Source: Eledone cirrhosa
Taxonomy: Eukaryota
Assembly: GCA_964016885.1 (NCBI GenBank)
Contig: OZ024742.1
Location: forward strand, 371,256,001 to 371,320,000
Length of the DNA stretch: 64,000 nucleotides
Direction of reading: 5' to 3'
Both the position numbers and the translations under genes were made by a program. The notes beneath the pieces were generated by a model. The model had not been told where the DNA came from. It ran no database searches and saw only the letters and a program-made list of their open reading frames with translations. Below, piece by piece: positions 23,550-64,000 of the stretch (position 1 is the first letter of the stretch; every line of letters begins with the position of its first letter).

Positions 23550-23900
23550 ATCATCATCAGCTTCATGCTTACACATGGCCTAGTTCTGTCCAGTACAATC
23601 TCACCCTCTCCACTTTCCTGTGTCATCTCTCTGGTTTTTTACCACTTAACAAGTCTTCCTTAGTCTTTCTCTCCCGTTGCTTCCTTCCACTTGGAACTCT
23701 TCACACTTCTTATGATATGTCATCCATGTACATCACATGTCTATACCAGCGCAGCCGTCTCCAGCATGCTACATCTGATTCCTCTTCTACCTAGTTTTTT
23801 TTCTCAGCTCATCAGTACTTCATCGTTCATGTACACTAATATTACACATCCAACAAAGCATGCTCAGTTCATTTCTCTCCTGTCTTCATATATCCTCTAC
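23550..23900 (-). mobile_element. Decayed RTE-type LINE 3' fragment, continuous with the 32-bp satellite
   Basis: The minus strand reads VNVEDI*RQERNELSMLCWMCNISVHER*STDELRKK/LGRRGIRCSMLE..RLRWYRHVMYMDD. This is collinear with the LINE ORF at 40543-41430 (AEDIRRLERNEACMLRWMCNSNIREQLSINELRKKLEIRGIRCCLLERRLRWYGHVMRMKDD). Confidence 0.88.
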
Positions 23901-26900
23901 ATTGACAACCCCCATCTTCATATATCCTCTACATTGACAGCCCATGTCTTCATATATCCTCTACATTGACAACCCCCCGTCTTCATATATCCTCTACATT
24001 GACAACCCCCGTCTTCATATATCCTCTACATTGACAGCCCATGTCTTCATATAACCTCTACATTGACAGCCCCCATCTTCATATATCCTCTACATTGACA
24101 GCCCCCATCTTCATATATCCTCTACATTGACAGCCCCCATCTTCATATATCCTCTACATTGACAGCCCCCATCTTCATATATCCTCTACATTGACAGCCC
24201 CCGTCTTCATATATCCTCTACATTGACAGCCCCCATCTTCATATATCCTCTACATTGAGAGCCCATGTCTTCATATAACCTCTACATTGACAGCCCCCAT
24301 CTTCATATATCCTCTACATTGACAGCCCCCATCTTCATATATCCTCTACATTGACAGCCCCCATCTTCATATATCCTCTACATTGACAGCCCCCATCTTC
24401 ATATATCCTCTACATTGACAGCCCCCATCTTCATATATCCTCTACATTGAGAGCCCCCATCTTCATATATCCTCTACATTGACAGCCCCCATCTTCATAT
24501 ATCCTCTACATTGACAGCCCCCGTCTTCATATATCCTCTACATTGACAGCCCCCATCTTCATATATCCTCTACATTGACAGCCCCCATCTTCATATATCC
24601 TCTACATTGAGAGCCCCCATCTTCATATATCCTCTACATTGACAGCCCCCATCTTCATATATCCTCTACATTGACAGCCCCCGTCTTCATATATCCTCTA
24701 CATTGACAGCCCCCGTCTTCATATATCCTCTACATTGACAGCCCCCGTCTTCATATATCCTCTACATTGACAGCCCCCATCTTCATATATCCTCTACATT
24801 GACAGCCCCCGTCTTCATATATCCTCTACATTGACAGCCCCCATCTTCATATATCCTCTACATTGAGAGCCCATGTCTTCATATAACCTCTACATTGACA
24901 ACCCCCATCTTCATATATCCTCTACATTGACAGCCCCCCGTCTTCATAAATCCTCTACATTGACAGCCCCCGTCTTCATAAATCCTTTACATTGACAGCC
25001 CCCGTCTTCATAAATCCTTTACATTGACAGCCCCCGTCTTCATATATCCTCTACATTGACAGCCCCCGTCTTCATAAATCCTCTACATTGAGAGCCCATG
25101 TCTTCATATATCCTCTACATTGACAGCCCCCATCTTCATATATCCTCTACATTGAGAGCCCATGTCTTCATATAACCTCTACATTGACAGCCCCCATCTT
25201 CATATATCCTCTACATTGACAGCCCCCATCTTCATATATCCTCTACATTGACAGCCCCCATCTTCATATATCCTCTACATTGACAGCCCCCATCTTCATA
25301 TATCCTCTACATTGACAGCCCCCGTCTTCATATATCCTCTACATTGAGAGCCCCCATCTTCATATATCCTCTACATTGACAGCCCCCATCTTCATATATC
25401 CTCTACATTGACAGCCCCCGTCTTCATATATCCTCTACATTGACAGCCCCCGTCTTCATATATCCTCTACATTGACAGCCCCCGTCTTCATATATCCTCT
25501 ACATTGACAGCCCCCATCTTCATATATCCTCTACATTGACAGCCCCCGTCTTCATATATCCTCTACATTGACAGCCCCCATCTTCATATATCCTCTACAT
25601 TGAGAGCCCATGTCTTCATATAACCTCTACATTGACAACCCCCATCTTCATATATCCTCTACATTGACAGCCCCCCGTCTTCATAAATCCTCTACATTGA
25701 CAGCCCCCGTCTTCATAAATCCTTTACATTGACAGCCCCCGTCTTCATAAATCCTTTACATTGACAGCCCCCGTCTTCATATATCCTCTACATTGACAGC
25801 CCCCGTCTTCATAAATCCTCTACATTGACAGCCCCCGTCTTCATATATCCTCTACATTGACAGCCCCCATCTTCATATATCCTCTACATTGACAGCCCCC
25901 GTCTTCATATATCCTCTACATTGACAGCCCCCGTCTTCATATATCCTCTACATTGACAGCCCCCATCTTCATATATCCTCTACATTGACAGCCCCCATCT
26001 TCATATATCCTCTACATTGACAGCCCCCGTCTTCATAAATCCTCTACATTGACAGCCCCCGTCTTCATATATCCTCTACATTCACAGCCCCTGTCTCCCT
26101 ATATCCTCTACATTGACAGCCCCTGTCTCCCTATATCCTCTACATTGACAGCCTCCATCTTCATATATCCTCTACATTCACAGCCCCTGTCTTCATATAT
26201 CCTCTACATTGACAGCCCCCGTCTTCATATATCCTCTACATTGACGGCCCCCATCTTCATATATCCTCTACATTCACAGCCCCCATCTTCATATATTCTC
26301 TAAATTCACAGCCCCCCATCTTCATATAGCCTCTACATTGACAGCCGCCATCTTCATATATCCTCTATATTGACAGCCCCTGTCTTCATATATCCTCTAC
26401 ATTGACAGCCTCCATCTTCATATATCCTCTACATTGACAGCCCCCGTCTTCATATATCCTCTACATTGACAGCCCCCGTCTTATATCCTCTACATTGACA
26501 GACCCTGTCTTCATATATCCTCTACATTGACAGCCCCCGTCTTCATATATCCTCTACATTGACGGCTCCCATCTTCATATATCCTCTACATTGACAGCCC
26601 CCATCTTCATATATCCTCTAAATCACAGACCCTGTCTTCATATATCCTCTACATTCACAGCCCCCATCTTCATATAGCCTCTACATTGACAGCCCCCATC
26701 TTCATATATCCTCTATATTGACAGCCCCTGTCTTCATATATCCTCTACATTGTCAGCCCCCTTCTTCATATATCCTCTAAATCACAGCCCCTGTCTTCAT
26801 ATATCCTCTACATTGACAGCCCCAATCTTCATATATCCTCCAAATTCACAGGCCCCATCTTCATATATCCTCTATATTGACAGCCCCTGTCTTCATATAT

Positions 26901-27232
26901 CCTCTACATTGACAGCCCCCATCTTCATATATCCTCTAAATCACAGCCCCATCTTCATATATCCTCTACATTGACAGCCCATGTCTTCATATATCCTCTA
27001 CATTGACAGCCCCCATCTTCATATATCCTCTACATTGACAGCCCCCATCTTCATATATCCTCTACATTGACAGCCCCCATCTTCATATATCCTCTACATT
27101 GACAGCCCCCATCTTCATATATCCTCTACATTGACAGCCCCCATCTTCATATATCCTCTACATTGACAGCTCCCATCTTCATATATCCTCTACATTGACA
27201 GCCCCCATCTTCATATATCCTCTACATTGACA
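23881..27232. repeat. 32-bp tandem satellite (CTTCATATATCCTCTACATTGACAGCCCCCRT), about 105 copies, LINE-derived
   Basis: Period is read directly. An internal block is repeated at a 737-bp offset (marker tgagagcccatgtcttcatataacctctacattgacaacc at 24864 and 25601). Confidence 0.96.
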
Positions 27233-27315
27233 GGCCTTGTCTCATATTGTTCTTGAATGTTAATGAACAAAATATGTATTTTTAAATGCTATTTCTTTTT
27301 TAAAATCTATTTTAG

Positions 27316-27408
27316 GTTAGTGGTTTGGAGATGAGGAAATGGGTTGATGAATTACTGCCTATTATTCTGAATACCTTACAGGATCTCACATCTGTTGAGA
27401 AAAGAGAA
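27316..27408 (+). CDS. MTOR: TOR exon: VSGLEMRKWVDELLPIILNTLQDLTSVEKRE
   Basis: tag|GTT...GAA|gtaaat, 93 nt. Contains the mTOR motif VSGLEMRKWVDEL. Confidence 0.93.
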
Positions 27409-27469
27409 GTAAATATAGATTTATTTTCATATGATGTCTTCTCTTCTCTTCTTTTTCACCCTCTTATCA

Positions 27470-27850
27470 CTGACAGGGTCATGTTGACAGTCCTTAAACA
27501 CTCCTTCCAGTGAGTTCCGTCAGAAGCAACTGTCTCCAACTAATCCAGCTGGATACCCAAGTGAGACCAGCCAAGCTCATGGATGTTATCCAACCATCTT
27601 GCTCAGTATCTACCCCTGGATCTCCTGTTGGTTTTGCCCATAAAATCTGTCCAGTGATTCTTTCCCGAGACATTCTAACCACATGTCCATTGTATCGCAG
27701 CTGTGATCTCTCAATTCGGAGTTGTGGCTCTAGCTGGAGTGACTCTGATCTCCAAGTTATGGACTCTATTAAGTAACGTTACTCCAAAGACCTTTCGGGG
27801 AAATCCCATTTCGGCTGCTTGTATTTGCGATCATATTCTTTCAGTCATCA
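27470..27850 (-). mobile_element. Decayed LINE (RTE-like) 3' ORF remnant
   Basis: The minus strand reads ...GHVVRMSRERITGQILWAKPTG..., resembling an RTE C-terminus. A related copy lies at 29370-29670. Confidence 0.6.
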
Positions 27851-28045
27851 TTTGATGTCATGTTATGAAATTTCCCATTATCAGGCAGCAAATTTGTTAG
27901 AGCATCATATTAAATACCTTGGAGTATTTTTCTGCCTCTCTCCCTCTCTCTCAGTTCAAATCACACTGAATTCAACATTGCCGTTCATCCTTTTAGTGGA
28001 AATGTTTGTTGTGAAAATTTGCAGCATGAGAGAAGACTTTCGTTT

Positions 28046-28255
28046 TTAATGTGATGCAGTCACAATGTTGTTAAATTTCGAGCATTATAAGTAAAGACTT
28101 AAATATTTAATGTGATGCAGTTACAGTGCTGTTAAATTTCGAGCAGTATAAGTAAAGACTTAAATATTTAATGTGATGCAGTTACAGTGCTGTTAAATTT
28201 CGAGCAGTATAAGTAAAGACTTAAATATTTAATGTGATGCAGTTACAGTGCTGTT
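28046..28255. repeat. 61-bp tandem repeat, about 3.4 copies
   Basis: aatgtgatgcag recurs at 28048, 28109, 28170 and 28231. Confidence 0.9.
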
Positions 28256-28350
28256 TTGTATCTTTCAAGAATATCTTCCAAATGCAATTTCATGTGGTAC
28301 ATGACTTTTATAAATTAACAAATTAACTTAAAATGTTCTTTCTATTTCAG

Positions 28351-28485
28351 GTTTCTCTCTGGACTTTAGGACAGTTGATTGAGAGCACTGGGTATGTTGT
28401 AGAGCCTTACCAAAAATATCCTGCTCTGCTTGGAATTCTTCTTAATTTCATGAAAACTGAACAGACACACAGTGTCAGACGGGAG
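28351..28485 (+). CDS. MTOR: TOR exon: VSLWTLGQLIESTGYVVEPYQKYPALLGILLNFMKTEQTHSVRRE
   Basis: cag|GTT...GAG|gttagt, 135 nt. Contains the conserved TOR motif LWTLGQL..STGYVVEPY.KYP. Confidence 0.95.
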
Positions 28486-29369
28486 GTTAGTTAAACTGTA
28501 AATTAATATTTCAATTATTTTTCTCTCTTCTTTGAACATCACAGGAAAGATTGCTCAAAGTGTTTATTTGGGATATAGGAAATGAAATACAATGTTATTT
28601 ATTAAGTCAAGCGGCAAGATTCCAGATCTTATTCGCTTAACGAGTGGGGTGGAGCACATCAAATCAGACCAAGGAAACAGTCTTGCTCAAGGACATAATG
28701 CATCGCCCAGTCCAGAAATCAAACTCACAACCTCTTGATTGCAAATCCAATTCTCTAACCACTCAGCCACGCACCTCCATAGTGTTATTGCCATGATAAA
28801 ATGCACTCAGTGGGCTCCTTAAAGTAATTGGTGTTAGGAAAGACATTCAGCTGTAGAAGCCATGCCAAATGGGTAGAGAGGGCTGTTAAGCTATGTCAAG
28901 GACGTAACTTCCCTAGTGCTGCTGCCATGATAAAATGCTTCCAGTACACTCAGTAAAGTGGTAGGGTTTATAAGGGCATCCAGCTGTAGAAACCCTGTCA
29001 AAAGGGTCTTGAAGATTATTCAGGCATGTCAAAGACAACTTCCCTAGAGTTGATGCCTTGATAGAATGTAGCAAATACACTTTATAAAATGGTTGGTGTT
29101 AGAAACAGATGCAAATCATAGAAACCATCCCCAAACTGGAATGTATTGAATAAAACATGGTCCCTCCAACCCATCTAGGACAACAGTAGCCTGAAGTACT
29201 GGCCTAGTTTGGAAAACTGGCATTAAACAATAATGTTGATCACATAAATAAAAGACATCCTTAATGGGGTAACCCATTATAATATACCACCAGTTGCAGA
29301 AAATCAATGTTTTGGCTGTAATGTATAATTGCTAATTGTTGTTGTTGTTGTTCTTTGCCCACTTATTCC

Positions 29370-29670
29370 TGAGAGGATTGTGGGGGGTAGTCCTCAAACA
29401 CTCCTTCCAACTGGTCCTATCAGAAGCAACCGTCTCTGATCTGTCGGGATCCCCAAGCGAGACCAGCCAATCTTATGGATGTTTTCCAAACATCTTGCTT
29501 GGAGTCTACCCCTGGGTTTCCTGTTGGTTGGTTTTTGCCTGTAAAATCTGTCCAGCTATTCTTTCCTGAGACATTCTAACCACATGCCCATAGTCCCAGA
29601 GCTGTGATCTCTCAATTCGGAGAAGTAGCTGCTCTACTTGGGGTGACTCTCTCATCTCTGAGCTAGGTTT
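29370..29670 (-). mobile_element. Second decayed LINE 3' remnant, homologous to 27470-27850
   Basis: Shares aaacactccttcca...gacattctaaccacatg...gctgtgatctctcaattcgga with the upstream copy. Confidence 0.6.
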
Positions 29671-29714
29671 GATGCCGAGTGCTAATTGTTCATTTTCTTA
29701 ATTTTTATTTACAG

Positions 29715-31525: not shown

Positions 31526-31568
<43 letters not shown>
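31524..31568. repeat. (TA)n microsatellite
   Basis: Seen directly. Confidence 0.95.
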
Positions 31569-31570
<2 letters not shown>

Positions 31571-31776
31571 CATCGTTTAACATCTATTTTCCAGTGTGTG
31601 TGTAGAGAGAGAGGGGGGTGTATGAATTATGACTGCAATGCCAAGCAGTTTTGGCTGAAACCGCTAGCCACACGTTCTGGATTTTACCTATCTCTATAAC
31701 CACTCTGCATCCTCCCATGTATTGAGTACTTCCATGATCAGTGGTCTCCCCGATCTCAACGCTGCAGACTAAATAT

Positions 31777-32430
31777 ACAGTGTGGCACAGATAAACCTAG
31801 TTTTTATGTGGCAACAGCACCGTGAGTCGTGGTATAGCGAGGTTTCGAGAACGGCATTAGAAATTAAAACACCTCAGCTGTATGGCCATTAATGCACGAG
31901 ATGTCTTCAGAATATGATTGTCGAACTGCTGGCATATTGGGCCTCAAATAAGGACAATTTCAGGCCAGAACACAAAACTCACAAGAAGTGCTCTGGTGCC
32001 ACCAGGATACCAGAGTTTATTGCCGATGCCTCCATCTTGGTGCCAACAGTTACATGAGGTTCCTGAACGAGCACGTCAAGCATTGGATGGACAGGTTGGT
32101 TAATGGGAGGCCCTATGTCTTTCAACAGGACTCTGCCCACACCCACAAAGCCATAACCATCCAATGCCTGGCTCTTCGCCAATGTGCTGTACCACTGGTC
32201 ACCCAACTTATGCTCTCCCCATCGCCAGACTGTAATCTTCCCAACTATTTTGTGTGGGATATCATGGAGAGAGAGGTGAAGAGCAGGCCATACAATACCA
32301 AGGAGGCTCTCAAGGCAACCATCAGGTACGCCATGTACAGGGACACTGTCACCAAGGCCTGCTCCAGGTTCCAGTCCTGCCTGGAGAAAGTGGTGGCTGC
32401 TGATAGTATTTTGAATGCATATTTATAATG
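31777..32430 (+). mobile_element. Decayed Tc1/mariner superfamily transposase fragment (DD37D/maT-like)
   Basis: ORF 31988-32428 contains YVFQQDSAHTHKA and SPDCNLPNYFVW. There are 37 residues between the QQD aspartate and the position of the last catalytic residue, which is mutated to N here. Confidence 0.75.
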
Positions 32431-36658: not shown

Positions 36659-37202
36659 GTAAGATCATCTGTGTACTGTTGAGGTTTTTGGCTTTTGTTG
36701 CAGCAAACAAAGTGGATGTGGATCTATGTTATCATTGCCATTTTCTATGCTTGCATGTTTTAAGGCAGGACAAGTCAGATGACTTTCATATGTTATGTGG
36801 TTTCTCTCTCTCTCCCCCATATGTTCCATTCTGGCATGGTTTCTACATCCGGATGCCCTTCCTAATGCCAACCACTTCAGTGTGTAGCAGATGTTTTATC
36901 GAGGTGTGTTTAACTTTTAACATGCTGAACAAAAAGCACCCAGCCCACACTGTAAATGTGGTTGGTGTTAGGGAGGGCATCCAGCCATAGAAACCAAGCT
37001 CCCAGTACACACTGTAAATGTGGTTGGTGTTAAGGAGGGCATCCAGCCATAGAAACCAAGCCAGAAACAGTTTGGTAAGAACAAAACACGGTCATCCGAT
37101 CTTGCCTGTCTCACAATGGGATAGCTAATCTAACTGATGCTAGCATGGAAAATGGATGTTAAACAGTGATGATAATCCAAATGTTTACAGTGTCTTTGTT
37201 AA

Positions 37203-39726
37203 CCCTTTTGTTACCAAGCCGCTCAAAACCACCCGTACTCACACATTCATATTTAAATGAGAATATCAGAGCAAATCTCGTTAGTACATTCGTTAAAACA
37301 CGTGATTATACTACGTAAACAATTGAGCTACACTTTCGGATAAATATCAACGTGTTATTTTAATTCTGTGAATTTTGGGAGATTTTTTTTCCAAATTTGT
37401 TCCTGTTGTATTTTGAAAATGTTTAATTCTGACAAAAAATGGATACCAATTTCATTCAGTCAAGCAGCGAGTCAGAATTCGAAGGATTTTCTACTGAAGA
37501 CCTTGAAAAATCTAACTCTATAACTGTAAAAAAAAAAAGCACATAGTATTTGATAAGGAATCCGATGTTTCATTTTCCGAAAGTGAAAGCAGTGAATCCG
37601 AGAGCTTCGATGACAGCGATAAAGAAAATGTGATAATGAATTGGCACCTGAATGGAGTAAAAATTTAAAAACTGTTTCTTTCAGTGATTTTTATGAAGAA
37701 ACTGGACCAAGTCACAGTCTATCCCAGGAGAGCAAAGCTTTAGACTATTTCCTTTTACTTTTTCCTATGAGCTTGTTTGAAATTATTACGGCGGAAACAA
37801 ACCGTTACGCTGAAAGTAAACAAAGTGAAAAAAAGGATAGTTTGTGGTTTCTCACAAGCTTAAATGAAATTAGGGCTTATTTTGCCATAAATATTATTAT
37901 GGGCATTAGAAAGCTACCCAGAATTACAAATTACTGGAGTAGCGATGAACCCTTCGGAGACGAATATGTCTCAAGTATAATGACGAAGACACGGTTTTTA
38001 AAATTGACGCAGTATTTACATGTAAGAGACACGAGCAGTACACCAGTACGTGGAGAACCAAACTATGATCCCTTATTTAAAATAAGACCCCTCATTGATT
38101 GTGTTCAAAACACACATAAAACAGTTTACAAACCAGGGAGATATTTATCTATCGATGAGGGTATGGTGGGCTATAAAGGCTGAGTGCGTTTTCGACAATA
38201 TATGCCAGGAAAGCCCACAAAATGGGGGATGAAAGTTTGGAAGATTTGCGAATCGAATACTGGGTACTGCTCTGGATTTGAATTTTATACTGGCAAAAGA
38301 GACAATTATGTAAGTCAGCATGGCCTAGGGTATGATGTGGTTTGGAATTTATCACTTTCATACCATAACCAGGGCCGTATATTATTTTTTGACCGGTTTT
38401 TCAGTTCGGTCAAACTTGCGGAGAATTTAGATACTGTGGCAACACATACATGTGCTACAGTGATCGCTAATAGAAAAGGACTGCCGTTGGATATAAAAAA
38501 AGCAAAATTAAAAAAAAAAGGTGAAATAATTCAACGGCAGAAAGGAAATTTGCTAGCGACCACATACAGAGATTAGAGGCAGATCAATTTTCTGTCTACC
38601 TGTGCACGGCCACATGTGGATGAAAATGGCACCCCATTTGTGAATCTCGATTACAACAGGTACATGGGTGGTGTAGATCGGATGAATCAGATGATGTCTT
38701 ATTATCCAGTTGGCAGATCGGGGAATAAATGGTGGCGATACCTGGTTTGGTATATAGTAAATATGAGTATTACTAATGCGTTTATACTATATACCAAATC
38801 GGGACCGGCTCGAAAGCGATGTGACCATCTGCAGTTCTAAGCAGATATAGCAACACAATTAAGAGCTGGTTATTCCTCAAAAAAAATAACTGTAGGGAGA
38901 AAAACCAAAGCCTGCCAGAGAGATATCCCTCTGAATTCAGCCGATCTCCATAAATTAGAAAAAAATCAAGGGTCGCAAAAGGCAGTGTCGTGAATGCTTT
39001 TTCAAAAAAGGAAAGCTCCTAGTGGAAGGTCTGTTGAAACAACTTTCCAATGTGCATTCTGCAAGGTTGCATTATGTAGAGCAGGGTGCTTTACAAGTTT
39101 TCATGATAGGAATATTGTTTGATTTGTATATATGTGATTTTATTTTATTAATATTTTCATATTTACTTCGTTTTTATTTTTCTTTGTGTAATTTTAATTT
39201 ACCTGTAAGGTGAATGACGAGTTTTGATTAATTTCTTTTGTAAATCATTATTGTATATTTCTGCATATCTATGTATGTGGGAGAGCTTATTTAATCTAGT
39301 TGATGGTGTGTGTGTATTTTGTTTTCTAGTTTTCTTCAGACAAATTCCAGTCTTTCGTTTTATTTATACCTTTATGGTACACCTGTCTTTTGTGTGTTTA
39401 AATTCACCTGATAAATCCAGTAATGTGCACAACTCTTCTATAGTAAAATTTTGTTGTATACCCAATTGAATATTAGCTAATAACCCATTTTCTATAGCAA
39501 TGTTTGAACAAAATTTAAATAATTTCATATTTTGTTGAATTTACCTGTAATTAGAGTCACTTTGAGACAAAAATTATGGAATAGAATTGGTTGAGAACCT
39601 TTCGTTAAATTTTCTTCAAAAAATCACATTAATATGTTGATAAATAAAAAAAGTTAGAGTTGTTTAATGAAACATAAATTTATGATTGTTATAAATTAAT
39701 TGGTTAGAAATATGGTAACGAAAGGG
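37203..39726 (+). mobile_element. Full-length piggyBac DNA transposon (decayed)
   Basis: TTAA target sites at 37199-37202 and 39727-39730. 14-bp TIRs CCCTTTTGTTACCA / TGGTAACGAAAGGG with one mismatch. Contains a transposase. Confidence 0.93.
37439..39125 (+). pseudogene. piggyBac (PGBD4-like) transposase pseudogene
   Basis: Acidic N-terminus from ATG 37439. Catalytic motifs SIDEGMVGYKG, FFDRFFSS and YNRYMGGVD, plus a C-terminal Cys cluster (QCAFCKVALCRAGC). In-frame stops end ORFs at 38183, 38576 and 38840, and there are frameshifts in A-runs. Confidence 0.88.
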
Positions 39727-40125
39727 TTAAACAGATTGTGAAAATTTGCAGTAAATTTTTTAATGTGATGCCATCAGTGTTGTTCTATATTTTTCAAGAA
39801 TGTGGTTTCATGTGGTACAGGACATTAACTCTTAACATCCTGTAATACATGAAACCGCTAGACATTCTTGTAAAGTACTTTTATTAAAAATTAAAATCTT
39901 TAGTTTACTGCAAATTTTCAGTGATCTGTCCACTAGTAAAGACACCTCAAACATTTTAATTAATAAACCTGTTTCAAAATATTTTCTGCTAAATCATTAC
40001 AGGTTGCTAAGAGTTATTACTGCAAATTTTCACAACGATCAGTCCACTAGTAAAGTTCTTAGAAACATTTGAATTGACAAACCTGTTTTAGACATTTTCT
40101 GGATGCTAAGAGTTAATGTAAACAA

Positions 40126-42400
40126 TCATCATCATCATCATCATCAACGTTTAACGTCCGTGTTCCACGCTTGCATGGGTTTGGACGGGGGTTTTCCCAC
40201 TTGAGGCAAGAGTGATTGTCTTGCTCGCATAGGACTGTCTGGCGGGTTTTCTACAGCTGGATGCCCTTCCTAACACCAACCACATTTACAGTGTGGGTCT
40301 GGGAGGTTTTTACCGTGTTGCCTACACGGCCACATTACAGCGTGGACTGTGTGTTTTTTGTCGTGACACCTACACGATCTCATTTGTTTCAACCAGGATG
40401 TTGTGGCACCAACATAACTTTACATTGAAAGGGGCGGTGGGGGTGGTGGGACGGGGGTGTGTTTTGTTAGAGATGCCTACTGACTGTAGTAGGTTTTACT
40501 TTGTATTTAGGTAAGGCGGGTCTTCTCTATTACTGAGTACCGTCAAAGGTCTCGGTCCAGTGACATTGTCTTGGAGAGGTGTAAGCGTGTGAGGTCGGAA
40601 TTTATCATGTCGTCCCAGGTTTTTCTGGGTCTGCCTACTCCGTGGCTACCGTCTATCTTTATTGCCCTGCACTTTGTTATACAGCTGTCGTCTTTCATGC
40701 GCATCACGTGACCATACCAACGTAGCCTTCTCTCGAGTAAACAACATCTGATCCCTCTTATTTCTAATTTTTTCCTTAGTTCGTTTATGCTTAGCTGTTC
40801 ACGTATATTACTATTACACATCCAGCGGAGCATGCAAGCTTCGTTCCTCTCTAGTCTGCGTATATCCTCTGCACACAATGCCCAGGTCTCACTGCCATGC
40901 AACATTGCTGTTCGTATGCAGGCATCATATAACCTGCCTTTCATTTTTAGGGAGAACCCTTTAGCGGCTAATAGTGGTATAAGCTCTCTGAACTTTTTCC
41001 ATCCAGTTCTGACTCTAGCTACTGTACTTTCAGAGCACCCTCCCCCACTGCTGATTTTGTCACCCAGGTAACGGAAGCTGTCCACTATTTCTATAGAACC
41101 CTCTGCGCAATTGAAAGAGCTAATATTTTGTGGGCACTTGCTGCTACTTATTGCACCAGAGCACCGGCCACATGTAAAATCTATGTTCTTAGTTAGCTTA
41201 CCTGTGATCCCACTACATCTTTTATGCACCCATACTTTGCATTTGGGACATAAAATGGAGTTTCTACCTACGCCTTTCCTACACACTGAGCATGGCCATT
41301 TCCTGGAAGGGACCGCCGCCTTATTTTCTTTCCTACAAACTAGAACTTTAGTCTTAGCCAGGTTAATTTTAAGGCCTTTTGATTCTAGGCCGTGCTTCCA
41401 TGTTTGGAATTTCTTCTCTAGCTCGGTCATTCATTCAGCTATGAGCGTTAGATCATCTGCGTATAGGAGTTCCCATGGGCAGCCGGTCTTGAACTCCTCT
41501 GTTATAGTCTGAAGGGCAATAATAACTAGTAGGGGGCTAAGAACAGAGCCCTGATGGACACCAACTTTTACGCTAAACTCTTCACTATATTCGTTGTTAA
41601 TTCTAACCTTGCTGACCGTTTCTTTATACATGGCTTGTATAGCTCTCACAAGCCATTCGTCAACACCTAGTTTTCTAAGAGCCCACCAGATAATGGAACG
41701 GGGGGACTCTGTCGAAGGCTTTCTCCAAGTCAACAAAAGCTAAGTATAGGGGTTTACTTTTAGCTAGGTACTTCTCCTGTAGTTGTCGTACAATGAAAAG
41801 AGCGTCTGTGGTACTTTTGCCTGACACAAACCCGAACTGGATTTCATCTAGATCAATTCTCTCTCTGATTAGTTGCGCTATTACTTTTTCCGTGACCTTC
41901 ATGACCTGGTCGATTAATTTAATGCCTCTATAGTTACACCTATCTAGGGCATCTCCTTCACCCTTGTAACAGTTAATGATGATGCTGCTATGCCAGTCCT
42001 TCGGAACAACCCCATTCTGTATGACTTGGTTTACTATCCGGGTGACCATGGTGTGTCCCACCGTTCCAGAGGCTTTCAGCATCTCAGCAACTATTTCCGA
42101 AGGCCCAGCCGCCTTACCCGTCTTCATATCTTTGATTGCCTTACTTATTATACTACCTTCGACTAACACTGCTGGTCCCTCTATTGGGTCGATGTGGGGG
42201 AGACTGTCTTTCTCCCATTTGTTCTCCTCATTTAGAAGCCTTTCGTAGTGACACTTCCAAGCTACCTTCTTATCAGCGTCAGTGATGGCAAGTATGCCAT
42301 CATCATTAAGTACACACTTCTCCCCGACAATATCACGGTTTTCCTTGACACATTGCCTGGCAATCCTGAACACCTCACGTTTTTGGTCCTCACAAGAGGA
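40126..42400 (-). mobile_element. 5'-truncated RTE-type LINE (reverse transcriptase ORF disrupted)
   Basis: RT motifs NYRGIKL, QFGF, AFVDLEKAFDRVP, GVHQGSVLSPLL and LLYADDL, followed by a Cys-rich insert and RLRWYGHV. Frameshift near 41700, stop at 41431-41433, and a (TGA)n tail (tcatcatca on +) at about 40126-40145. Confidence 0.93.
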
Positions 42401-49208: not shown

Positions 49209-51479
49209 ACTACTAAAGTCACTATATGTACCACATTTACTACTAAAGTCACTATATGTGCCACATTTATTACTAAAGTCACTATACCTACCACATTTAC
49301 TACTAAAGTCACTATATGTACCACATTTACTACTAAAGTCACTATATGTACCACATTTACTACTAAAGTCACTATATGTACCACATTCACTACTAAAGTC
49401 ACTATATGTACCACATTTACTACTAAAGTCACTATATGTACCACATTCACTACTAAAGTCACTATATGTACCACATTCACTACTAAAGTCACTATATGTA
49501 CCACATTCACTACTAAAGTCACTATATGTACCACATTCACTACTAAAGTCACTATATGTACCACATTTACTACTAAAGTCACTATATATACCACATTCAC
49601 TACTAAAGTCACTCTATGTACCACATTCACTACTAAAGTCACTATATGTACCACATTTACTACTAAAGTCACTATATGTACCACATTTACTACTAAAGTC
49701 ACTATATATACCACATTCACTACTAAAGTCACTATATGTACCACATTCACTACTAAAGTCACTATATGTACCACATTCACTACTAAAGTCACTATATGTA
49801 CCACATTCACTACTAAAGTCACTATATGTACCACATTCACTACTAAAGTCACTATATATACCACATTCACTACTAAAGTCACTATATGTACCACATTCAC
49901 TACTAAAGTCACTATATCTGCCACATTTACTACTAAAGTCACTATATATACCACATTCACTACTAAAGTCACTGTCCCACATTCACTACTAAAGTCACTA
50001 TATGTACCACATTTACTACTAAAGTCACTCTATGTCCCACATTCACTACTAAAGTCACTATACCTACCACATTTACTACTAAAGTCACTATATCTGCCAC
50101 ATTCACTACTAAAGTCACTATATGTACCACATTCACTACTAAAGTCACTATATCTGCCACATTCACTACTAAAGTCACTATATGTACCACATTCACTACT
50201 AAAGTCACTATGTACCACATTTACTACTAAAGTCACTATATGTACCACATTCACTACTAAAGTCACTATATGTACCACATTCACTACTAAAGTCACTATA
50301 TGTACCACATTCACTACTAAAGTCACTATATCTGCCACATTTACTACTAAAGTCACTATATGTACCACATTCACTACTAAAGTCACTATATGTACCACAT
50401 TCACTACTAAAGTCACTATATGTACCACATTTACTACTAAAGTCACTCTATGTACCACATTCACTACTAAAGTCACTATGTACCACATTCACTACTAAAG
50501 TCACTATATGTACCACATTTACTACTAAAGTCACTGTCCCACATTCACTACTAAAGTCACTATATGTACCACATTCACTACTAAAGTCACTATATCTGCC
50601 ACATTTACTACTAAAGTCACTATATATACCACATTCACTACTAAAGTCACTATATGTACCACATTTACTACTAAAGTCACTATATGTACCACATTTACTA
50701 CTAAAGTCACTATGTACCACATTCACTACTAAAGTCACTATATGTACTACATTTAGTACTAAAGTCACTATATGTGCCACATTCACTACTAAAGTCACTA
50801 TATGTACCACATTCACTACTAAAGTCACTATGTACCACATTTACTACTAAAGTCACTATATGTACCACATTCACTACTAAAGTCACTATATGTACCACAT
50901 TCACTACTAAAGTCACTATATGTACCACATTCACTACTAAAGTCACTATATGTACCACATTCACTACTAAAGTCACTATATGTACCACATTCACTACTAA
51001 AGTCACTATATGTACCACATTCACTACTAAAGTCACTATATGTACCACATTCACTACTAAAGTCACTATATGTACTACATTTACTACTAAAGTCACTATA
51101 TGTACCACATTCACTACTAAAGTCACTATATGTACCACATTCACTACTAAAGTCACTATGTACCACATTCACTACTAATGTCACTATGTACCACATTTAC
51201 TACTAAAGTCACTATATGTACCACATTTACTACTAAAGTCACTATATATACCACATTCACTACTAAAGTCACTATATGTACCACATTTATTACTAAAGTC
51301 ACTATATGTACCACATTTACTACTAAAGTCACTATATGTACCACATTCACTACTAAAGTCACTATGTACCACATTCACTACTAAAGTCACTATGTACCAC
51401 ATTTACTACTAAAGTCACTATATGTACCACATTTACTACTAAAGTCACTATATGTACCACATTCACTACTAAAGTCATT
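49209..51479. repeat. 30-bp tandem satellite (ACTACTAAAGTCACTATATGTACCACATTY), about 76 copies, with 28- and 25-bp variants
   Basis: Period is read directly. It starts within the splice donor context of the preceding exon. Confidence 0.96.
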
Positions 51480-54007: not shown

Positions 54008-54494
54008 GTAAGTTAAAACTTTTCTTTCTTAAACATTTTGTTGCCATATTTCTAATAGCCTATTTTTATTTCAAATAATTTTCAAAAATAACCAAGAATT
54101 TGGAGAGATTTATTATAACTTTCTCATCATTGAGCTAGTGTTTTGACTATAACTTAACAAGGCTATTACATAAATTTATAATGGAAAACTGGAGATAAAT
54201 ATAAACCATATTCACACTGCCTGTGCTTTTCAAATCATTTTGAAAATCAAGAATTTGAAGAAATTTACTAATATAACTAAATTTTCTCATTATTAAGCTG
54301 GTGTTTGGAACATAACTTAACAAAGGTTCTTACATAAAATTATGATGGACACACACACATAATCATCATCGTCGTAGTCCTGTCCATTTTTCCATGCTTT
54401 TAAAGGTTAGACTGATCTCTTTCAACACATCTCACTACTTGCACTCATTTGTCCTTTTGTGAGGTTCAGCTTGCTGAGATCAACTTTCACCACT

Positions 54495-54615
54495 TTTATA
54501 GGTTTGGGGGACTACTACCTCTTTTGACTACACACAGTAGATTGTATGATGCCTGTGTGAGAAGTGTGATGTTACATGGTAGTGAGATATCGGTAGTGAA
54601 TATAGACGATATGTT
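54495..54615 (+). mobile_element. RTE-type LINE ORF remnant seeding the downstream satellite
   Basis: Reads FYRFGGLLPLLTTHSRLYDACVRSVMLHGSEISVVNIDDML, compared with the LINE ORF WKKFRELIPLLAAKGFSLKMKGRLYDACIRTAMLHGSETWALCAEDI. Confidence 0.88.
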
Positions 54616-57600
54616 ATGTTACATGGTAGTGAGATATCGGTGGTGAATATAGACGATATGTTATGTTACATGGTAGTGAATATAGACGATATGTTATGTT
54701 ACATGGTAGTGAGATATTGGTAGTGAATGTAGAGGTTATGTTATGTTACATGGTAGTGAGACATGGGTGGTGAATGTAGAGGTTATGTTACATGGTAGTG
54801 AGACATGGGTGGTGAATGTAGAGGTTATGTTACATGGTAGTGTGACATGGGTGGTGAATATAGACGATATGTTACGTTACATGGTGGTGAATGTGGAGGT
54901 TATGTTACATGGTAGTGAATGTAGAGGTTATGTTACATGGTAGTGAATGTAGAGGTTATGTTACATGGACAGTGAATGTAGAGGTTGTTACATGGTAGTG
55001 AGACATGGGTGGTGAATGTAGAGGTTATGTTACATGGTAGTGAGACATGGGTGGTGAATGTAGAGGTTATGTTACATAGTAGTGAATGTAGAGGTTATGT
55101 TTCATGGTAGTGAGACACGGACAGTGAATGTAGAGGTTATGTTACATGGTAGTGAGACATGGGTGGTGAATGTAGAGGTTATGTTACATGGTAGTGAATG
55201 TAGAGGTTGTTACATGGTAGTGAGACATGGGTGGTGAATGTAGAGGTTATGTTACATGGTAGTGAGACATGGGTGGTGAATGTAGAGGTTATGTTACATA
55301 GTAGTGAATGTAGAGGTTATGTTACATGGTAGTGAGACATGGACAGTGAATGTAGAGGTTATGTTACATGGTAGTGAGATATGGGTAGTGAATGTAGAGG
55401 TTATGTTACATGGTAGTGAGACATGGGTGGTGAATGTAGAGGTTATGTTACATAGTAGTGAATGTAGAGGTTATGTTACATGGTAGTGAGACATGGGTGG
55501 TGAATGTAGTGGTTATGTTACATGGTAGTGAGACATGGGTGGTGAATGTAGAGGTTATGTTACATGGTAGTGAGACATGGGTGGTGAATGTAGAGGTTAT
55601 GTTACATGGTAGTGAATATAGAGGTTATGTTACATGGTAGTGAGACATGGACAGTGAATGTAGAGGTTATGTTACATGGTAGTGAATGTAGAGGTTATGT
55701 TACATGGTAGTGAGATATGGGTAGTGAATGTAGAGGTTATGTTACATGGTAGTGAGATATGGGGAGTGAATGTAGAGGTTATGTTACATGGTGGTGAGAC
55801 ATGGGTGGTAAATGTAGAGGTTATGTTACATGGTAGTGAGACATGGGTGGTGAATGTAGAGGTTATGTTACATGGTAGTGAGACATGCGTATTGAATGTA
55901 GAGATTATGTTACATGGTAGTGAGACATGGGTGGTGAATGTAGAGGTTATGTTACATGGTAGTGAATGTAGAGGTTGTTACATGGTAGTGAATGTAGAGG
56001 TTATGTTACATGGCTGGTGAATGTAGAGGTTATGTTACATGGTAGTGAGACATGGGTGGTGAATGTAGAGGTTATGTTACATGGTAGTGAGACATGGGTG
56101 GTGAATGTAGAGGTTATGTTACATAGTAGTGAATGTAGAGGTTATGTTACATGGTAGTGAGACATGGACGGTGAATGTAGAGGTTATGTTACATGGTAGT
56201 GAGATATGGGTAGTGAATGTAGAGGTTATGTTACATGGTAGTGAGACATGGGTGGTGAATGTAGAGGTTATGTTACATAGTAGTGAATGTAGAGGTTATG
56301 TTACATGGTAGTGAGACATGGGTGGTGAATGTAGTGGTTATGTTACATGGTAGTGAGACATGGGTGGTGAATGTAGAGGTTATGTTACATGGTAGTGAAT
56401 GTAGAGGTTATGTTACATGGTAGTGAATGTAGAGGTTATGTTACATGGCTGGTGAATGTAGAGGTTATGTTACATGGTAGTGAGACATGGGTAGTGAATG
56501 TAGAGGTAATGTTATATGGTAGTGAGACATGGGTGGTGAATGTAGAGGTTATGTTACATGGTAGTGACACATGGGTAGTGAATGTAGAGGTTATGTTACA
56601 TGGTAGTGAGACATGGCTGGTGAATGTAGAGGTTATGTTACATGGTAGTGAATGTAGAGGTTATGTTACATGGTAATGAGACATGGGTGGTGAATGTAGA
56701 GGTTATGTTACATGGTAGTGAGATATGGGTGGTGAATGTAGAGGTTATGTTACATGGTAGTGTGACATTGGTGGTGAATGTAGAGGTTATGTTACATGGT
56801 AGTGAGACATGGGTAGTGAATGTAGAGGTTTTGTTACAAGGTAGTGAGACATGGGTGGTGAATGTAGAGGTTATGTTACATGGTAGTGAGACATGGGTGG
56901 TGAATGTAGAGGTTATGTTACATGGTAGTGTGACATAGGTGGTGAATGTAGAGGTTATGTTACATGGTAGTGAGACATGGACAGTGAATGTAGAGGTTAT
57001 GTTACATGGGTAGTGAATGTAGAGGTTGTTACATGGGTGGTGAATGTAGAGGTTATGTTACATGGTAATGAGACATCGGTAGTGACTGTAGAGGTTATGT
57101 TACATGGGTGGTGAATGTAGAGGTTATGTTACATGTTAGTGAGACATGGGTGGTGAATGTAGAGGTTATGTTACATGGTAGTGAATGTAGAGGTTATGTT
57201 ACATGGTAGTGAGACATGGGTGGTGAATGTAGAGGTTATGTTACATGGTAGTGAGACATGGGTGGTGAATGTAGAGGTTATGTTACATGGTAGTGAGACA
57301 TGGGTAGCGAATGTAGAGTTTATGTTACAAGGTAGTGAGACATGGGTAGTGAATGTAGAGGTTATGTTACATGGTAGTGAAATCTGGGTGGTGAATGTAG
57401 AGGTTATGTTACATGCTAATGAGACATGGACAGTGAATGTAGAGGTTATGTTACATGGACAGTGAATGTAGAGGTTATGTTACATGGTAGTGAGACATGG
57501 GTAGTGAATGTAGAGGTTATGTTACATGGTAGTGAGACATGGGTGGTGAATGTAGAGGTTATGTTACATGGTAGTGAGACATGGACAGTGAATGTAGAGG

Positions 57601-60600
57601 TTATGTTACATGGGTAGTGAATGTAGAGGTTGTTACATGGGTGGTGAATGTAGAGGTTATGTTACATGGTAATGAGACATCGGTAGTGACTGTAGAGGTT
57701 ATGTTACATGGGTGGTGAATGTAGAGGTTATGTTACATGGTAGTGAATGTAGAGGTTATGTTACATGGTAATGAGACATGGGTAGTGAATGTAGAGGTTA
57801 TGTTACATGGTAGTGAGACATGGGTATAGAATGTAGAGGTTATGTTACATGGTAGTGAGACATGGGTGGTGAATGTAGAGGTTATGTTACATGGGTGGTG
57901 AATGTAGAGGTTATGTTACATGGTAGTGAGACATGGACAGTGAATGTAGAGGTTATGTTACATGGTAGTGAGTCATGGGTGATGAATGTAGAGGTTATGT
58001 TACATGGTAGTGAGACATGGGTAGTGAATGTAGAGGTTATGGTGCATGGTAGTGAGACATGGGTCGTGAATGTAGAGGTTATGTTACATGGTAGTGAGAC
58101 ATGGGTGGTGAATGTAGAGGTTATGTTACATGGTAGTGAGACATGGACAGTGAATGTAGAGGTTATGTTACATGGTAGTGAGATATGGGTAGTGAATGTA
58201 GAGGTTATGTTACATGGTAGTGAGACATGGACAGTGAATGTAGAGGTTATGTTACATGGTAGTGAGGCATGGGTAGTGAATGTAGAGGTTATGTTACAAG
58301 GTAGTGAGACATGCGTAGTGAATGTCGAGGTTATGTTACATGGTAATGAGACATGGGTAGTGAATGTAGAGGTTATGTTACATGGTAGTGAGACATGGGT
58401 AGTGAATGTAGAGGTTATGTTACATGGTAGTGAATGTAGAGGTTCTGTTACATGGCTGGTGAATGTAGAGGTTATGTTACATGGTAGTGAGACATGGGTG
58501 GTGAATGTAGAGGTTATGTTATATGGTAGTGAGACATGGGTGGTGAATGTAGAGGTTATGTTACATGGTAGTGACACATGGGTAGTGAATGTAGAGGTTA
58601 TGTTACATGGTAGTGAGACATGGGTGGTGAATGTAGAGGTTATGTTACATGGTAGTGAGATATGGGTGGTGAATGTAGAGGTTATGTTACATGGTAGTGT
58701 GACATAGGTGGTGAATGTAGAGGTTATGTTACATGGTAGTGTGACATAGGTGGTGAATGTAGAGGTTATGTTACAAGGTAGTGAGACATGGGTGGTGAAT
58801 GCAGAGGTTATGTTACATGGTAGTGAGACATGGACAGTGAATGTAGAGGTTATGTTACATGGGTAGTGAATGTAGAGGTTGTTACATGGGTGGTGAATGT
58901 AGAGGTTATGTTACATGGTAATGAGGCATCGGTAGTGAATGTAGAGGTTATGTTACATGGGTGGTGAATGTAGAGGTTATGTTACATGGTAGTGAATGTA
59001 GAGGTTATGTTACATGGTAATGAGACATGGGTAGTGAATGTAGAGGTTATGTTACATGGTAGTGAGACATGGGTATAGAATGTAGAGGTTATGTTACATG
59101 GTAGTGAGACATGGGTGGTGAATGTAGAGGTTATGTTACATGTTAGTGAGACATGGGTGGTGAATGTAAAGGTTATGTTACATGGTAGTGAGACATGGGT
59201 GGTGAATGTAGAGGTTATGTTACATGGTAGTGATACATGGCTGGTGAATGTAGAGGTTATGTTACATGGTAGTGAGACATGTGGTGAATGTAGAGGTTAT
59301 GTTACATGGTAGTGAGACATGGGTGGTGAATGTAGAGGTTATGTTACATGGTAGTGAGACATGGGTGGTGAATGTAGAGGTTATGTTACATGGTAGTGAC
59401 ACATGGGTAGTGAATGTAGAGGTTATGTTACATGGGTGGTGAATGTAGAGGTTATGTTACATGGTAATGAGACGTGGGTAGTGAATGTAGAGGTTATGTT
59501 ACATGGTAGTGAATGTAGAGGTTGTTACATGATAGTGAGACATGGGTGGTGAATGTAGAGGTTATGTTACATAGTAGTGAGACATGGGTAGTGAATGTAG
59601 AGGTTATGTTACATGGTAGTGAGACATGGGTGGTGAATGTAGAGGTTATGTTACATAGTAGTGAATGTAGAGGTTATGTTACATGGTAGTGAGACATGGA
59701 CAGTGAATGTAGAGGTTATGTTACATGGTAGTGAGATATGGGTAGTGAATGTAGAGGTTATGTTACATGGTAGTGAGACATGGACAGTGAATGTAGAGGT
59801 TATGTTACATGGTAGTGAGACATGGACAGTGAATGTAGAGGTTATGTTACATTGTAGTGAGACATGGGTAGTGAATGTAGAGGTTGTTACATGGTAGTGA
59901 GACATGGGTGGTGAATTTAGAGGTTATGTTACATGGTAGTGAATGTAGAGGTTATGTTACATGGTAGTGAGACATGGGTGGTGAATGTAGAGGTTATGTT
60001 ACATGGTAGTGAGACATGGGTGGTGAATGTAGAGGTTATGTTACGTGGTAGTGAGACATGGGTAGCGAATGTAGAGTTTATGTTACAAGGTAGTGAGACA
60101 TGGGTAGTGAATGTAGAGGTTATGTTACATGGTAGTGAAATCTGGGTGGTGAATGTAGAGGTTATGTTACATGCTAATGAGACATGGACAGTGAATGTAG
60201 AGGTTATGTTACATGGACAGTGAATGTAGAGGTTATGTTACATTGTAGTGAGACATGGGTAGTGAATGTAGAGGTTATGTTACATGGTAGTGAGACATGG
60301 GTAGTGAATGTAGAGGTTATGTTACATGGTAGTGAGACATGGGTGGTGAATGTAGAGGTTATGTTACATGGTAGTGAATATAGAGGTTATGTTACATGGT
60401 AGTGAAATCTGGGTGGTGAATGTAGAGGTTATGTTACATGCTAATGAGACATGGACAGTGAATGTAGAGGTTATGTTACATGGTAGTGAGATATGGGTAG
60501 TGAATGTAGAGGTTATGTTACATGGTAGTGAGACATGGACAGTGAATGTAGAGGTTATGTTACATGGTAGTGAGTCATGGGTGGTGAATGTAGAGGTTAT

Positions 60601-63600
60601 GTTACATGGTAGTGAGACATGGGTGGTGAATGTAGAGGTTATGTTACATGGTAGTGAGACATGGGTGGTGAATGTAGAGGTTATGTTACATGGTAGTGAA
60701 TATAGAGGTTATGTTACATGGTAGTGAGGCATGGACAGTGAATGTAGAGGTTATGTTACATGGTAGTGAGATATGGGTAGTGAATGTAGAGGTTATGTTA
60801 CATGGTAGTGAGATATGGGTAGTGAATGTAGAGGTTATGTTACATGGTAGTGAGATATGGGTAGTGAATGTAGAGGTTATGTTACATGGTGGTGAGACAT
60901 GGGTGGTAAATGTAGAGGTTATGTTACACGGTAGTGAGACATGGGTGGTGAATGTAGAGGTTATGTTACATGGTAGTGAATGTAGAGGTTATGTTACATG
61001 GCTGGTGAATGTAGAGGTTATGTTACATGGTAGTGAGACATGGGTGGTGAATGTAGAGGTTATGTTATATGGTAGTGAGACATGGGTGGTGAATGTAGAG
61101 GTTATGTTACATGGTAGTGACACATGGGTAGTGAATGTAGAGGTTATGTTACATGGTAGTGAGACATGGGTGGTGAATGTAGAGGTTATGTTACATGGTA
61201 GTGAATGTAGAGGTTATGTTACATGGCTGGTGAATGTAGAGGTTATGTTACATGGTAGTGAGACATGGGTGGTGAATGTAGAGGTTATGTTATATGGTAG
61301 TGAGACATGGCTGGTGAATGTAGAGGTTATGTTACATGGTAGTGACACATGGCTAGTGAATGTAGAGGTTATGTTACATGGTAGTGAATGTAGAGGTTAT
61401 GTTACATGGGTGGTGAATGTAAAGGTTATGTTACATGGTATTGAGATATGGGTGGTGAATGTAGAGGTTATGTTACATGGTAGTGTGACATAGGTGGTGA
61501 ATGTAGAGGTTATGTTACATGGTAGTGTGACATAGGTGGTGAATGTAGAGGTTATGTTACAAGGTAGTGAGACATGGGTGGTGAATGCAGAGGTTATGTT
61601 ACATGGTAGTGAGACATGGACAGTGAATGTAGAGGTTATGTTACATGGGTAGTGAATGTAGAGGTTGTTACATGGGTGGTGAATGTAGAGGTTATGTTAC
61701 ATGGTAATGAGACATCGGTAGTGAATGTAGAGGTTATGTTACATGGGTGGTGAATGTAGAGGTTATGTTACATGGGTAGTGAATGTAGAGGTTATGTTAC
61801 ATGGTAATGAGACATGGGTATAGAATGTAGAGGTTATGTTACATGGTAGTGAGACATGGGTGGTGAATGTAGAGGTTATGTTACATGGGTGGTGAATGTA
61901 GAGGTTATGTTACATGGTAGTGAGATATGGGTGGTGAATGTAGAGGTTATGTTATATGGTAGTGAGACATGGGTAGTGAATGTAGAGGTTATGTTACATC
62001 GTAGTGAGACATGGGAGGTGAATGTAGAGGTTATGTTATATGGTAGTGAGACATGGGTAGTGAATGTAGAGGTTATGTTACATGGTAGTGAGACATGGGT
62101 GGTGAATGTAGAGGTTATGTTACATGGTAATGAGACATGGGTAGTGAATGTAGAGGTTATGTTACATGGTAGTGAGACATGGGTGGTGAATGTAGAGGTT
62201 ATGTTACATGGTAGTGAGACATGGGTGGTGAATGTAAAGGTTATGTTACATGGTAGTGAGACATGGGTGGTGAATGTAGAGGTTATGTTACATGGCTGGT
62301 GAATGTAGAGGTTATGTTACATGGTAGTGACACATGTGTGGTGAATGTAGAGGTTATGTTACATGGGTGGTGAATGTAGAGGTTATGTTACATGGTAGTG
62401 AGACATGGGTGGTGAATGTAGAGGTTATGTTACATGGCTGGTGAATGTAGAGGTTATGTTACATGGTAGTGACACATGTGTGGTGAATGTAGAGGTTATG
62501 TTACATGGGTGGTGAATGTAGAGGTTATGTTACATGGTAGTGAGACATGGGTGGTGAATGTAGAGGTTATGTTACATGGTAGTGACACATGGGTAGTGAA
62601 TGTAGAGGTTATGTTACATGGGTGGTGAATGTAGAGGTTATGTTACATGGTAATGAGACATGGGTAGTGAATGTAGAGGTTATGTTACATGGTAGTGAAT
62701 GTAGACGTTATGTTACATGGTAGTGAGACATGGCTGGTGAATGTAGAGGTTATGTTACATGGTAGTGACACATGTGTGGTGAATGTAGAGGTTATGTTAC
62801 ATGGTAGTGAGACATGGGTGGTGAATGTAGAGGTTATGTTACATGGTAGTGAGACATGGGTGGTGAATGTAAAGGTTATGTTACATGGTAGTGAGACATG
62901 GGTGGTGAATGTAGAGGTTATGTTACATGGCTGGTGAATGTAGAGGTTATGTTACATGGTAGTGAGACATGGGTGGTGAATGTAGAGGTTATGTTACATG
63001 GTAGTGAGACATGGGTAGCGAATGTAGAGTTTATGTTACAAGGTAGTGAGACATGGGTAGTGAATGTAGAGGTTATGTTACATGGTAGTGAAATCTGGGT
63101 GGTGAATGTAGAGGTTATGTTACATGCTAATGAGACATGGACACTGAATGTAGAGGTTATGTTACATTGTAGTGAGACATGGGTAGTGAATGTAGAGGTT
63201 ATGTTACATGGTAGTGAATGTAGAGGTTATGTTACATGCTAATGAGACATGGACACTGAATGTAGAGGTTATGTTACATGGTAGTGAGATATGGGTGGTG
63301 AATGTAGAGGTTATGTTACATGGTAGTGTGACATAGGTGGTGAATGTAGAGGTTATGTTACATGGTAGTGTGACATAGGTGGTGAATGTAGAGGTTATGT
63401 TACAAGGTAGTGAGACATGGGTGGTGAATGCAGAGGTTATGTTACATGGTAGTGAATGTAGAGGTTATGTTACATGGGTAGTGAATGTAGAGGTTGTTAC
63501 ATGGGTGGTGAATGTAGAGGTTATGTTACATGGTAATGAGACATCGGTAGTGAATGTAGAGGTTATGTTACATGGGTGGTGAATGTAGAGGTTATGTTAC

Positions 63601-64000
63601 ATGGTAGTGAATGTAGAGGTTATGTTACATGGTAATGAGACATGGGTATAGAATGTAGAGGTTATGTTACATGGTAGTGAGACATGGGTGGTGAATGTAG
63701 AGGTTATGTTACATGGGTGGTGAATGTAGAGGTTATGTTACATGGTAGTGAGATATGGGTGGTGAATGTAGAGGTTATGTTATATGGTAGTGAGACATGG
63801 GTAGTGAATGTAGAGGTTATGTTACATGGTAGTGAGACATGGGAGGTGAATGTAGAGGTTATGTTATATGGTAGTGAGACATGGGTAGTGAATGTAGAGG
63901 TTATGTTACATGGTAGTGAGACATGGGTGGTGAATGTAGAGGTTATGTTACATGGTAATGAGACATGGGTAGTGAATGTAGAGGTTATGTTACATGGTAG
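54557..64000. repeat. 42-bp tandem satellite (GTTATGTTACATGGTAGTGAGACATGGGTGGTGAATGTAGAG) mixed with 28/29-bp deletion units; LINE-derived; runs off the right edge
   Basis: Period is read directly. The unit translates as VMLHGSETWVVNVE. Confidence 0.96.

Follow-up and report, generated by a model that had tools for sequence, protein, structure and literature searches.

Tandem arrays grown from one short ORF segment of an old LINE family cluster near contig ends and may pass their junction between LINE copies

We analysed a 64,000-nucleotide stretch of the Eledone cirrhosa genome (hereafter the window; G000:C3:371,256,001-371,320,000), which belongs to a 3.0-Gb assembly and lies on a contig of 379 Mb, 7.6 Mb short of its end. 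The host gene is mTOR, and the exons read in the sequence place both LINE-derived arrays of the window in what would be mTOR introns; no function is implied for mTOR, only larger introns. The features concerned are, in window coordinates:

23550..23882, minus strand: 3' part of a 5'-truncated old LINE copy of subfamily 'C' (RQERNE...RLRWY...), with a (TGA)n tail near 23550; nhmmer placement
23883..27244, minus strand: 32-bp tandem array at the 5' end of the 'C' LINE copy, its unit being the ETWAVNVEDI*R segment
34140..34418, plus strand: mTOR exon (host gene), from PDB sequence matches to mTOR, E 1e-24
40121..42400, minus strand: unexpanded LINE copy of the younger subfamily 'A', with the end of the reverse transcriptase (RT), a PHD finger and a single HGSETW segment near 40850-40935; sequence comparison
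54361..54497, minus strand: inverted 3' end of a further LINE fragment, directly adjoining the LINE copy that hosts the 42-bp array; read from sequence
54500..54564, plus strand: upstream LINE flank of the second array (GLLPLLTT...RLYDACVRS); sequence comparison
54565..64000, plus strand, continuing to G000:C3:371,332,984: second tandem array, with 47-bp units first, then 42-bp (and 28/29/40-bp) units; TRF

Both arrays grew from the same 30-50 bases of an old LINE family's ORF (the hot segment), and the arrays of this kind consist of head-to-tail units homologous to the LINE segment and are, at the loci examined, flanked by LINE sequence on at least one side. The long ORF of a natural copy (L028) carries a reverse transcriptase domain (PF00078, E 9e-20) as well as a PHD finger. 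The copies examined are 5'-truncated, and full-length relatives of 1,040-1,110 aa carry PF03372 and PF00078, many with PHD finger PF00628 in addition; the named relative of highest identity is an RT protein from Octopus bimaculoides (59% identical across 77% of the query). The copies have (GAT)n tails and variable 5' ends. A 3' microsatellite tail combined with 5' truncation is typical of RTE-clade LINEs, and we take the family to be RTE-like from its motifs. In 6 of 29 older copies (L052-L080) the 5' end falls at the hot segment to within ~12 bases, an observation that is only suggestive given the imprecision of alignment ends.

TRF called the 32-bp array at 23883-27233, with 104.8 copies, 93% matches and a length of 3.35 kb, and its junction, read from the sequence, lies at an AGACA microhomology at offset 32. 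As a preliminary description of the window had stated, this minus-strand array runs into LINE coding sequence, RQERNE...RRLRWY following directly; the 32-bp unit quoted there is not the typical one, being a minority variant found in 8 of 102 units, with the commonest forms accounting for 42 and 27 units. The 32-bp junction was found at no other site in the genome searches made, and looks like a private origin of the window array.

The second array, called by TRF from 54565 to the window end, is directly preceded by RLYDACVRSVMLHGSE. The upstream LINE flank reported earlier is thus present, but the downstream flank is kept too: the array ends at G000:C3:371,332,984, where the LINE resumes, giving ~22.4 kb overall, and the host LINE continues beyond it to its own (GAT)n tail. 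Twin priming was rejected as the origin of the inverted fragment before the array, since the host LINE has its own tail. The 42-bp period first assigned to the array describes 408 of 580 units, yet the array starts with 47-bp units and also contains 28-, 29- and 40-bp units. It is a member of the older ('C') 47-bp class, and transfer of a junction into it is suggested, less clearly than at other loci.

The two arrays have similar cores, the two 27-mers matching at 23 of 27 positions as originally noted, and the view that they are separate amplification events is borne out: their junctions differ, and of 259 downstream sites 87 (34%) are unlike between the two hosts, so that neither array was derived from the other. 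Nor do the two window arrays have in common the breakpoints or diagnostic mutations by which one could be recognised as a transposed derivative of the other. An unexpanded relative, RLYDACIRTAMLHGSETWALCAEDIRRL near 40850-40935, is present as reported, but it belongs to a different, younger subfamily and is not the parent; this subfamily 'A' copy (40121..42400) matches an unrelated copy at 96.6%, versus 71% for the flank of the 32-bp array.

The window holds further tandem arrays, of which the first 42-bp array and the 30-, 41- and 61-bp arrays gave no match to the LINE references. The former, at 6-22106 (starting at L047:6680; ~25 kb, 94% matches), is distinct from the 42-bp LINE array and gave one weak dispersed match in a random genome sample. 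A 30-bp array of 76 copies (49209-51477) starts just where an mTOR intron does, at its 5' splice site. The 41-bp array of 10 copies at 48249-48648 matches a dispersed repeat present in several random loci, which means that other TE families also seed arrays in the window. Inserts in mTOR introns at 37200-39730 and 31600-32430 are presumably DNA-transposon-like (piggyBac-like and Tc1/mariner-like by motifs).

Across the genome, the hot segment is tandem at no fewer than 54 loci (40 on contigs C1-C3 and 14 elsewhere), ranging from 2 units to ~127 kb (on C16), a count that is a lower bound because exact patterns were used and that includes several loci that are near-copies of each other. LINE copies with arrays thus occur across the genome, in keeping with the earlier proposal. 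The excess was assessed by searching for pairs of one 12-mer 20-62 bases apart and counting loci among the matches listed. The hot motif gave at least 11 LINE-type loci on C1-C3 (one further locus was dropped), compared with 1, 2, 0, 3 and 0 loci for five fully comparable control motifs, and a sixth control gave at least 2 loci on C1 versus 4 for the hot motif. One control motif equals the hot motif in single-word frequency (6 and 6 in 1.02 Mb of random sequence), and LINE coverage is flat, at 15-18 copies per position, in a random sample of 102 x 10 kb that served for normalising only. In subfamily D2, once six loci of an unrelated 48-49-bp repeat had been set aside, the hot motif was left with 18 loci, or 16 if three near-copies are merged, versus 0, 1 and 1 for controls, with motif frequencies among 27 single copies of 7/27 for the hot motif and 18/27, 17/27 and 7/27 for the controls; array origins are non-uniform along the LINE, in agreement with the earlier claim.

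When copies were chosen only by their flank, most proved to have a single unit: 0 of 29 were tandem in one set, and in a second set 1 of the 18 copies covering the unit was tandem, in addition to one array across the 5' junction. The abundant young subfamily showed no array among the matches listed in the paired-12-mer hot-motif search. Arrays inside LINE copies originate from further ORF positions as well, at 3-9 loci per control motif in complete genome-wide counts. Besides the six loci of the 48-49-bp repeat, a 49-bp array at C1:236 Mb and an array at C2:265.5 Mb were dropped as not LINE-derived.

Several further arrays were observed along the way. The WYGH segment, considered as a second hotspot, had 1,227 matches, but its two C1 arrays are of one origin; among the matches listed, WYGH-segment arrays with other periods occur on C2 and C10, and the segment is possibly a weaker seeding site. 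A 51-bp unit from the RPRKTW segment occurs at four loci with the same breakpoint (G000:C5:131.8 and 132.2, C22:21.6 and C23:11.9 Mb), and may be a second spreading junction. At G000:C1:5.82 Mb (L033:2797-5000) a 47-bp array is followed immediately by a 24-bp array (at least 92 copies) from the next LINE segment, RRLERNE, and at G000:C19:26.5 Mb (L228:1-1424) a 32-bp array joins 11 hot-segment bases to flanking sequence at the LINE 5' junction. A 98-bp unit that starts just upstream of the hot segment constitutes a second recurrent junction, with 10 loci, several of them paired within a few Mb (G000:C2:395.5, 395.97, 398.6, 402.9 and 27.6 Mb; C1:303.9 and 305.0; C11:19.7; C26:6.3 and 7.1). An unrelated 48-49-bp tandem family clusters distally (G000:C2:410.0-414.1 Mb and C3:360.69 Mb).

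Most of the array excess is due to one 47-bp junction. The preliminary description had attributed a seeding hotspot to internal microhomologies, and of this the positional excess is real, but the microhomology at offset 47 is 4-5 bp long, with 7-9 bp ones elsewhere, and other ORF positions seed too. The TGCGA direct repeat that bounds the unit at offset 47 is not exceptional along the ORF. As causes of the 47-bp excess, we rejected microhomology length, on this comparison; hairpin or loop energy, for which offset 47 ranks 29th of 143 (junction hairpin) and 15th (loop); and RNA fold, as the segment folds at -15 to -17 kcal/mol per 60 nt, similar to other stretches.

Fresh seeding at every locus, without common breakpoints or diagnostic mutations, had also been proposed, and this fails for the main 47-bp class, in which one junction with derived letters is common to ~30 loci. 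For 24 independent 'D' loci, the majority unit of the arrays agrees with the majority of single copies except at three junction sites, where the arrays carry G in 21/24 loci (versus 0/18 singles), A in 17/24 (versus 2/19 singles) and, at a CpG site, T in all 24. First units of arrays usually keep the single-copy letters. In D2 hosts neither of the sequences that meet at the join has the junction G, which is already present in all four 2-unit copies seen (L261, L262, L266 and L277). A C at the junction CpG site occurred in 4 matches genome-wide versus 601 for T-type junctions, the 601-match pattern, unlike the other hot-motif pair searches, excluding the CA form; the same CpG at the unit's right end, counted by eye in 34 C1 copies, reads TG in 15, CA in 11 and CG in 8. 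The junction contains a 7-bp inverted repeat that pairs better with two of the three letters than without them, which makes templated convergence possible. Since the three letters are common across 'D' loci, the junctions of most D-type arrays either go back to a common ancestor or have converged.

Hosts of the 47-bp class span three subfamilies, and one clade for ten hosts across subfamilies was rejected (p-AU 3e-59), ruling out a single master for all 47-bp arrays. Within D2, where the tree is star-like and power is low, one clade of array hosts was not rejected (p-AU 0.17 and 0.14); the D2 flank alignment contains no fixed array-host marker in 472 columns, and the array label is unclustered on the D2 tree (13 changes versus 14.1 shuffled). 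Array-majority units differ at 1-4 of 47 positions between most 'D' loci, and the flanks differ by 20-28%. The body of the unit largely follows its host, both in subfamily and in host-private letters, so that a conversion reading needs short tracts or later homogenisation.

Chromosomal location discriminates between inheritance and transfer better than the trees do. The loci with the 47-bp junction on C1-C3 all lie within 32 Mb of a contig end (17/17), a definition of distal whose cut was set post hoc and which uses contig ends as a proxy for chromosome ends; for D2 copies picked by a once-per-copy marker on C1-C2, the figure is 10/93. When marker-picked copies were read directly, 6/11 distal copies were tandem versus 0/13 interstitial ones (p 0.003), four of the six carrying the 47-bp junction and two the 98-bp junction only. 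Copies with at most 4 units were distal in 9/10 cases, compared with 11/94 marker matches. Complex tandem repeats overall are distally richer (37% versus 8% of sampled bases, p 0.011), and the exceptions that lie interstitially are nine loci of 'C' type on C2-C3, a 2-unit copy at C1:59 Mb and a number of the 98-bp junctions.

Array hosts less than 7 Mb apart share tracts of 96-99% identity, two of which end inside the LINE. The hosts at C2:395.97 and C2:402.89 Mb match at 193/200 positions from the last unit on and at ~72% thereafter, with differing outside flanks, and the hosts at C1:5.14, 5.81 and 6.43 Mb match at 97-99.5%; the sequence outside these elements is unrelated, and in one pair the match falls off within the LINE. 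For two 38-bp arrays, at C1:0.56 and 6.96 Mb, identity is ~94% up to the tail. Among 3,655 copy pairs compared, the top 4 (116-120/120) are array-array pairs less than 8 Mb apart, each at one contig end and together forming two clusters, where pairs that close make up 40/820 of array-array pairs; none of the single-single pairs among the 3,655 exceeded 113/120. The tract evidence thus comprises two clusters, the clearest of which carries the 98-bp junction, and C1:5.14 and 5.81 Mb share sequence exactly to the tail, a pattern that retrotransposition gives too.

We favour a model in which rare slippage junctions spread among distal LINE copies by ectopic gene conversion and then expand locally, and assign it a probability of roughly 0.55. 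Arrays are embedded in LINE copies, their loci are in excess, junction letters are common, the bias is distal and nearby hosts have near-identical tracts; from these observations we infer three steps. Microhomology of 4-6 bp would occasionally give a tandem duplication in one LINE copy, producing 32-, 29-, 47-, 66- and 98-bp junctions over the hot segment and other junctions elsewhere. In distal regions, break repair templated by a nearby LINE copy would then carry the junction into a single-unit copy. Unequal exchange and slippage would finally expand the array from 2 units to more than 20 kb, and deletions between internal ACATGG, ATGT and GATG repeats would yield 42-, 40-, 34- and 29-bp derivatives. 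The junction is common to hosts that do not form one clade (across subfamilies, not within D2) and tracts end inside the LINE, as would be expected of spread by interlocus gene conversion. A broader version, to which we give about even odds, treats the LINE family as a genome-wide network of landing pads, through which conversion would pass the junction until about half of the distal copies are tandem, without further retrotransposition or independent seeding; one ORF position would in this way give rise to a dispersed satellite family of 2 units to more than 100 kb.

The arrays might instead have arisen independently by slippage in place, mainly in high-recombination distal regions, with a quasi-palindromic junction templating its own letter convergence. 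Several distinct junctions do cover the segment (47, 32, 29, 66, 98 and 61 bp), the junction letters form A:T pairs in 'C' arrays but G:C pairs in 'D' arrays, and four units of one array (L128) reach 7/7 pairs; moreover, plain and derived junctions coexist in arrays, the plain one often 5'-most, and host-private letters run through whole arrays. We nevertheless judge this account unlikely, because microhomology and hairpin energy do not single out the 47-bp junction, the T is fixed even in the 7/24 loci that have G as its partner, for which C would be the better match, and three 2-unit copies have 0/8 private changes common to both units. The array-free state of the abundant young subfamily among the matches listed also argues against it, and the conversion-like tracts are left unexplained.

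Distinctly less probable is the retrotransposition in trans of one or a few source elements bearing a 47-bp duplication, the arrays being inherited seeds, much as has been proposed for LTR12 (PMC3389668). One step would then account for the common junction and for the difference between first unit and junction, and the small divergence of 'D' units relative to their flanks, the single clade not rejected within D2 and the locus at C1:5.14 Mb, which resembles a 5'-truncated new insertion, are all compatible with it. The same junction in hosts of different subfamilies, the lack of a fixed flank marker in the D2 alignment, tracts that end inside the LINE and the distal location of copies with few units speak against such an origin, from which a distal bias is not expected. 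RT stutter at a hot site during insertion, laying down several units at once, would fit the 5' ends that coincide with the array start in 11/21 array hosts versus 3/19 array-less copies (p 0.022), as well as units that lie nearer the subfamily majority than the flanks do; however, it predicts neither dependence on chromosomal position nor common derived letters, most 'D' hosts keep upstream LINE and the RNA fold at the segment is not exceptional, and we regard it as very improbable.

These loci bear on how minisatellites and satellites are born and reach new loci, as dozens of stages of one event, from 2 units to ~127 kb, can be seen here, and the marker letters and datable LINE scaffold let independent origin, inheritance and interlocus transfer be told apart directly. 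They also counsel caution, in that a single spreading junction can look like a 'hotspot' on a TE consensus, and that exchange of sequence between TE copies close to chromosome ends blurs their dating. In the literature listings searched, we found neither a description of this repeat nor a junction said to spread among LINE copies, nor LINE copies treated as landing pads.

Octopus RTE LINEs, including RTE-2_OV, have been described (PMC9115989, in whose main text the word 'tandem' is absent); like the full-length relatives of the present family, RTE-2_OV is an endonuclease-RT LINE, with one ORF and a zinc finger. Minisatellites derived from TEs and concentrated in certain regions of the element are known from AluS and LTR12 (Ahmed and Liang 2012, PMC3389668, which cites Jurka and Gentles for Alu); that study reports no genomic hotspots, attributes the LTR12 hotspots to inheritance by transposition and could account for only 6% of TE-derived repeats. 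In both systems tandem repeats are born in TE copies, with short direct repeats at their bounds, clustered consensus positions and more units in older copies; in contrast to AluS and LTR12, one exact ORF junction with common derived letters dominates here, arrays reach tens of kb and the distal bias is strong. Satellites derived from LINE ORF2, namely PROsat, Pvc 20 and chicken HinfI/CR1, likewise have monomers homologous to a LINE coding region, and the review that treats them states that a preference for specific TE portions lacks conclusive evidence (PMC9659126). Each of these is a single family; in the present genome, by contrast, one ORF position is strongly overrepresented, and the array hosts keep their LINE flanks. 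The Rsp-like repeats that entered 1.688 clusters in Drosophila are proposed to have moved by way of interlocus gene conversion or through eccDNA (Sproul et al. 2020, PMC7403614). There, too, a rare microhomology junction is common to loci and is proposed to enter pre-existing homologous sites, but the landing pads in that case are another satellite on the X, while in the present case LINE copies with one unit would play that part, and the seed comes from the same LINE.
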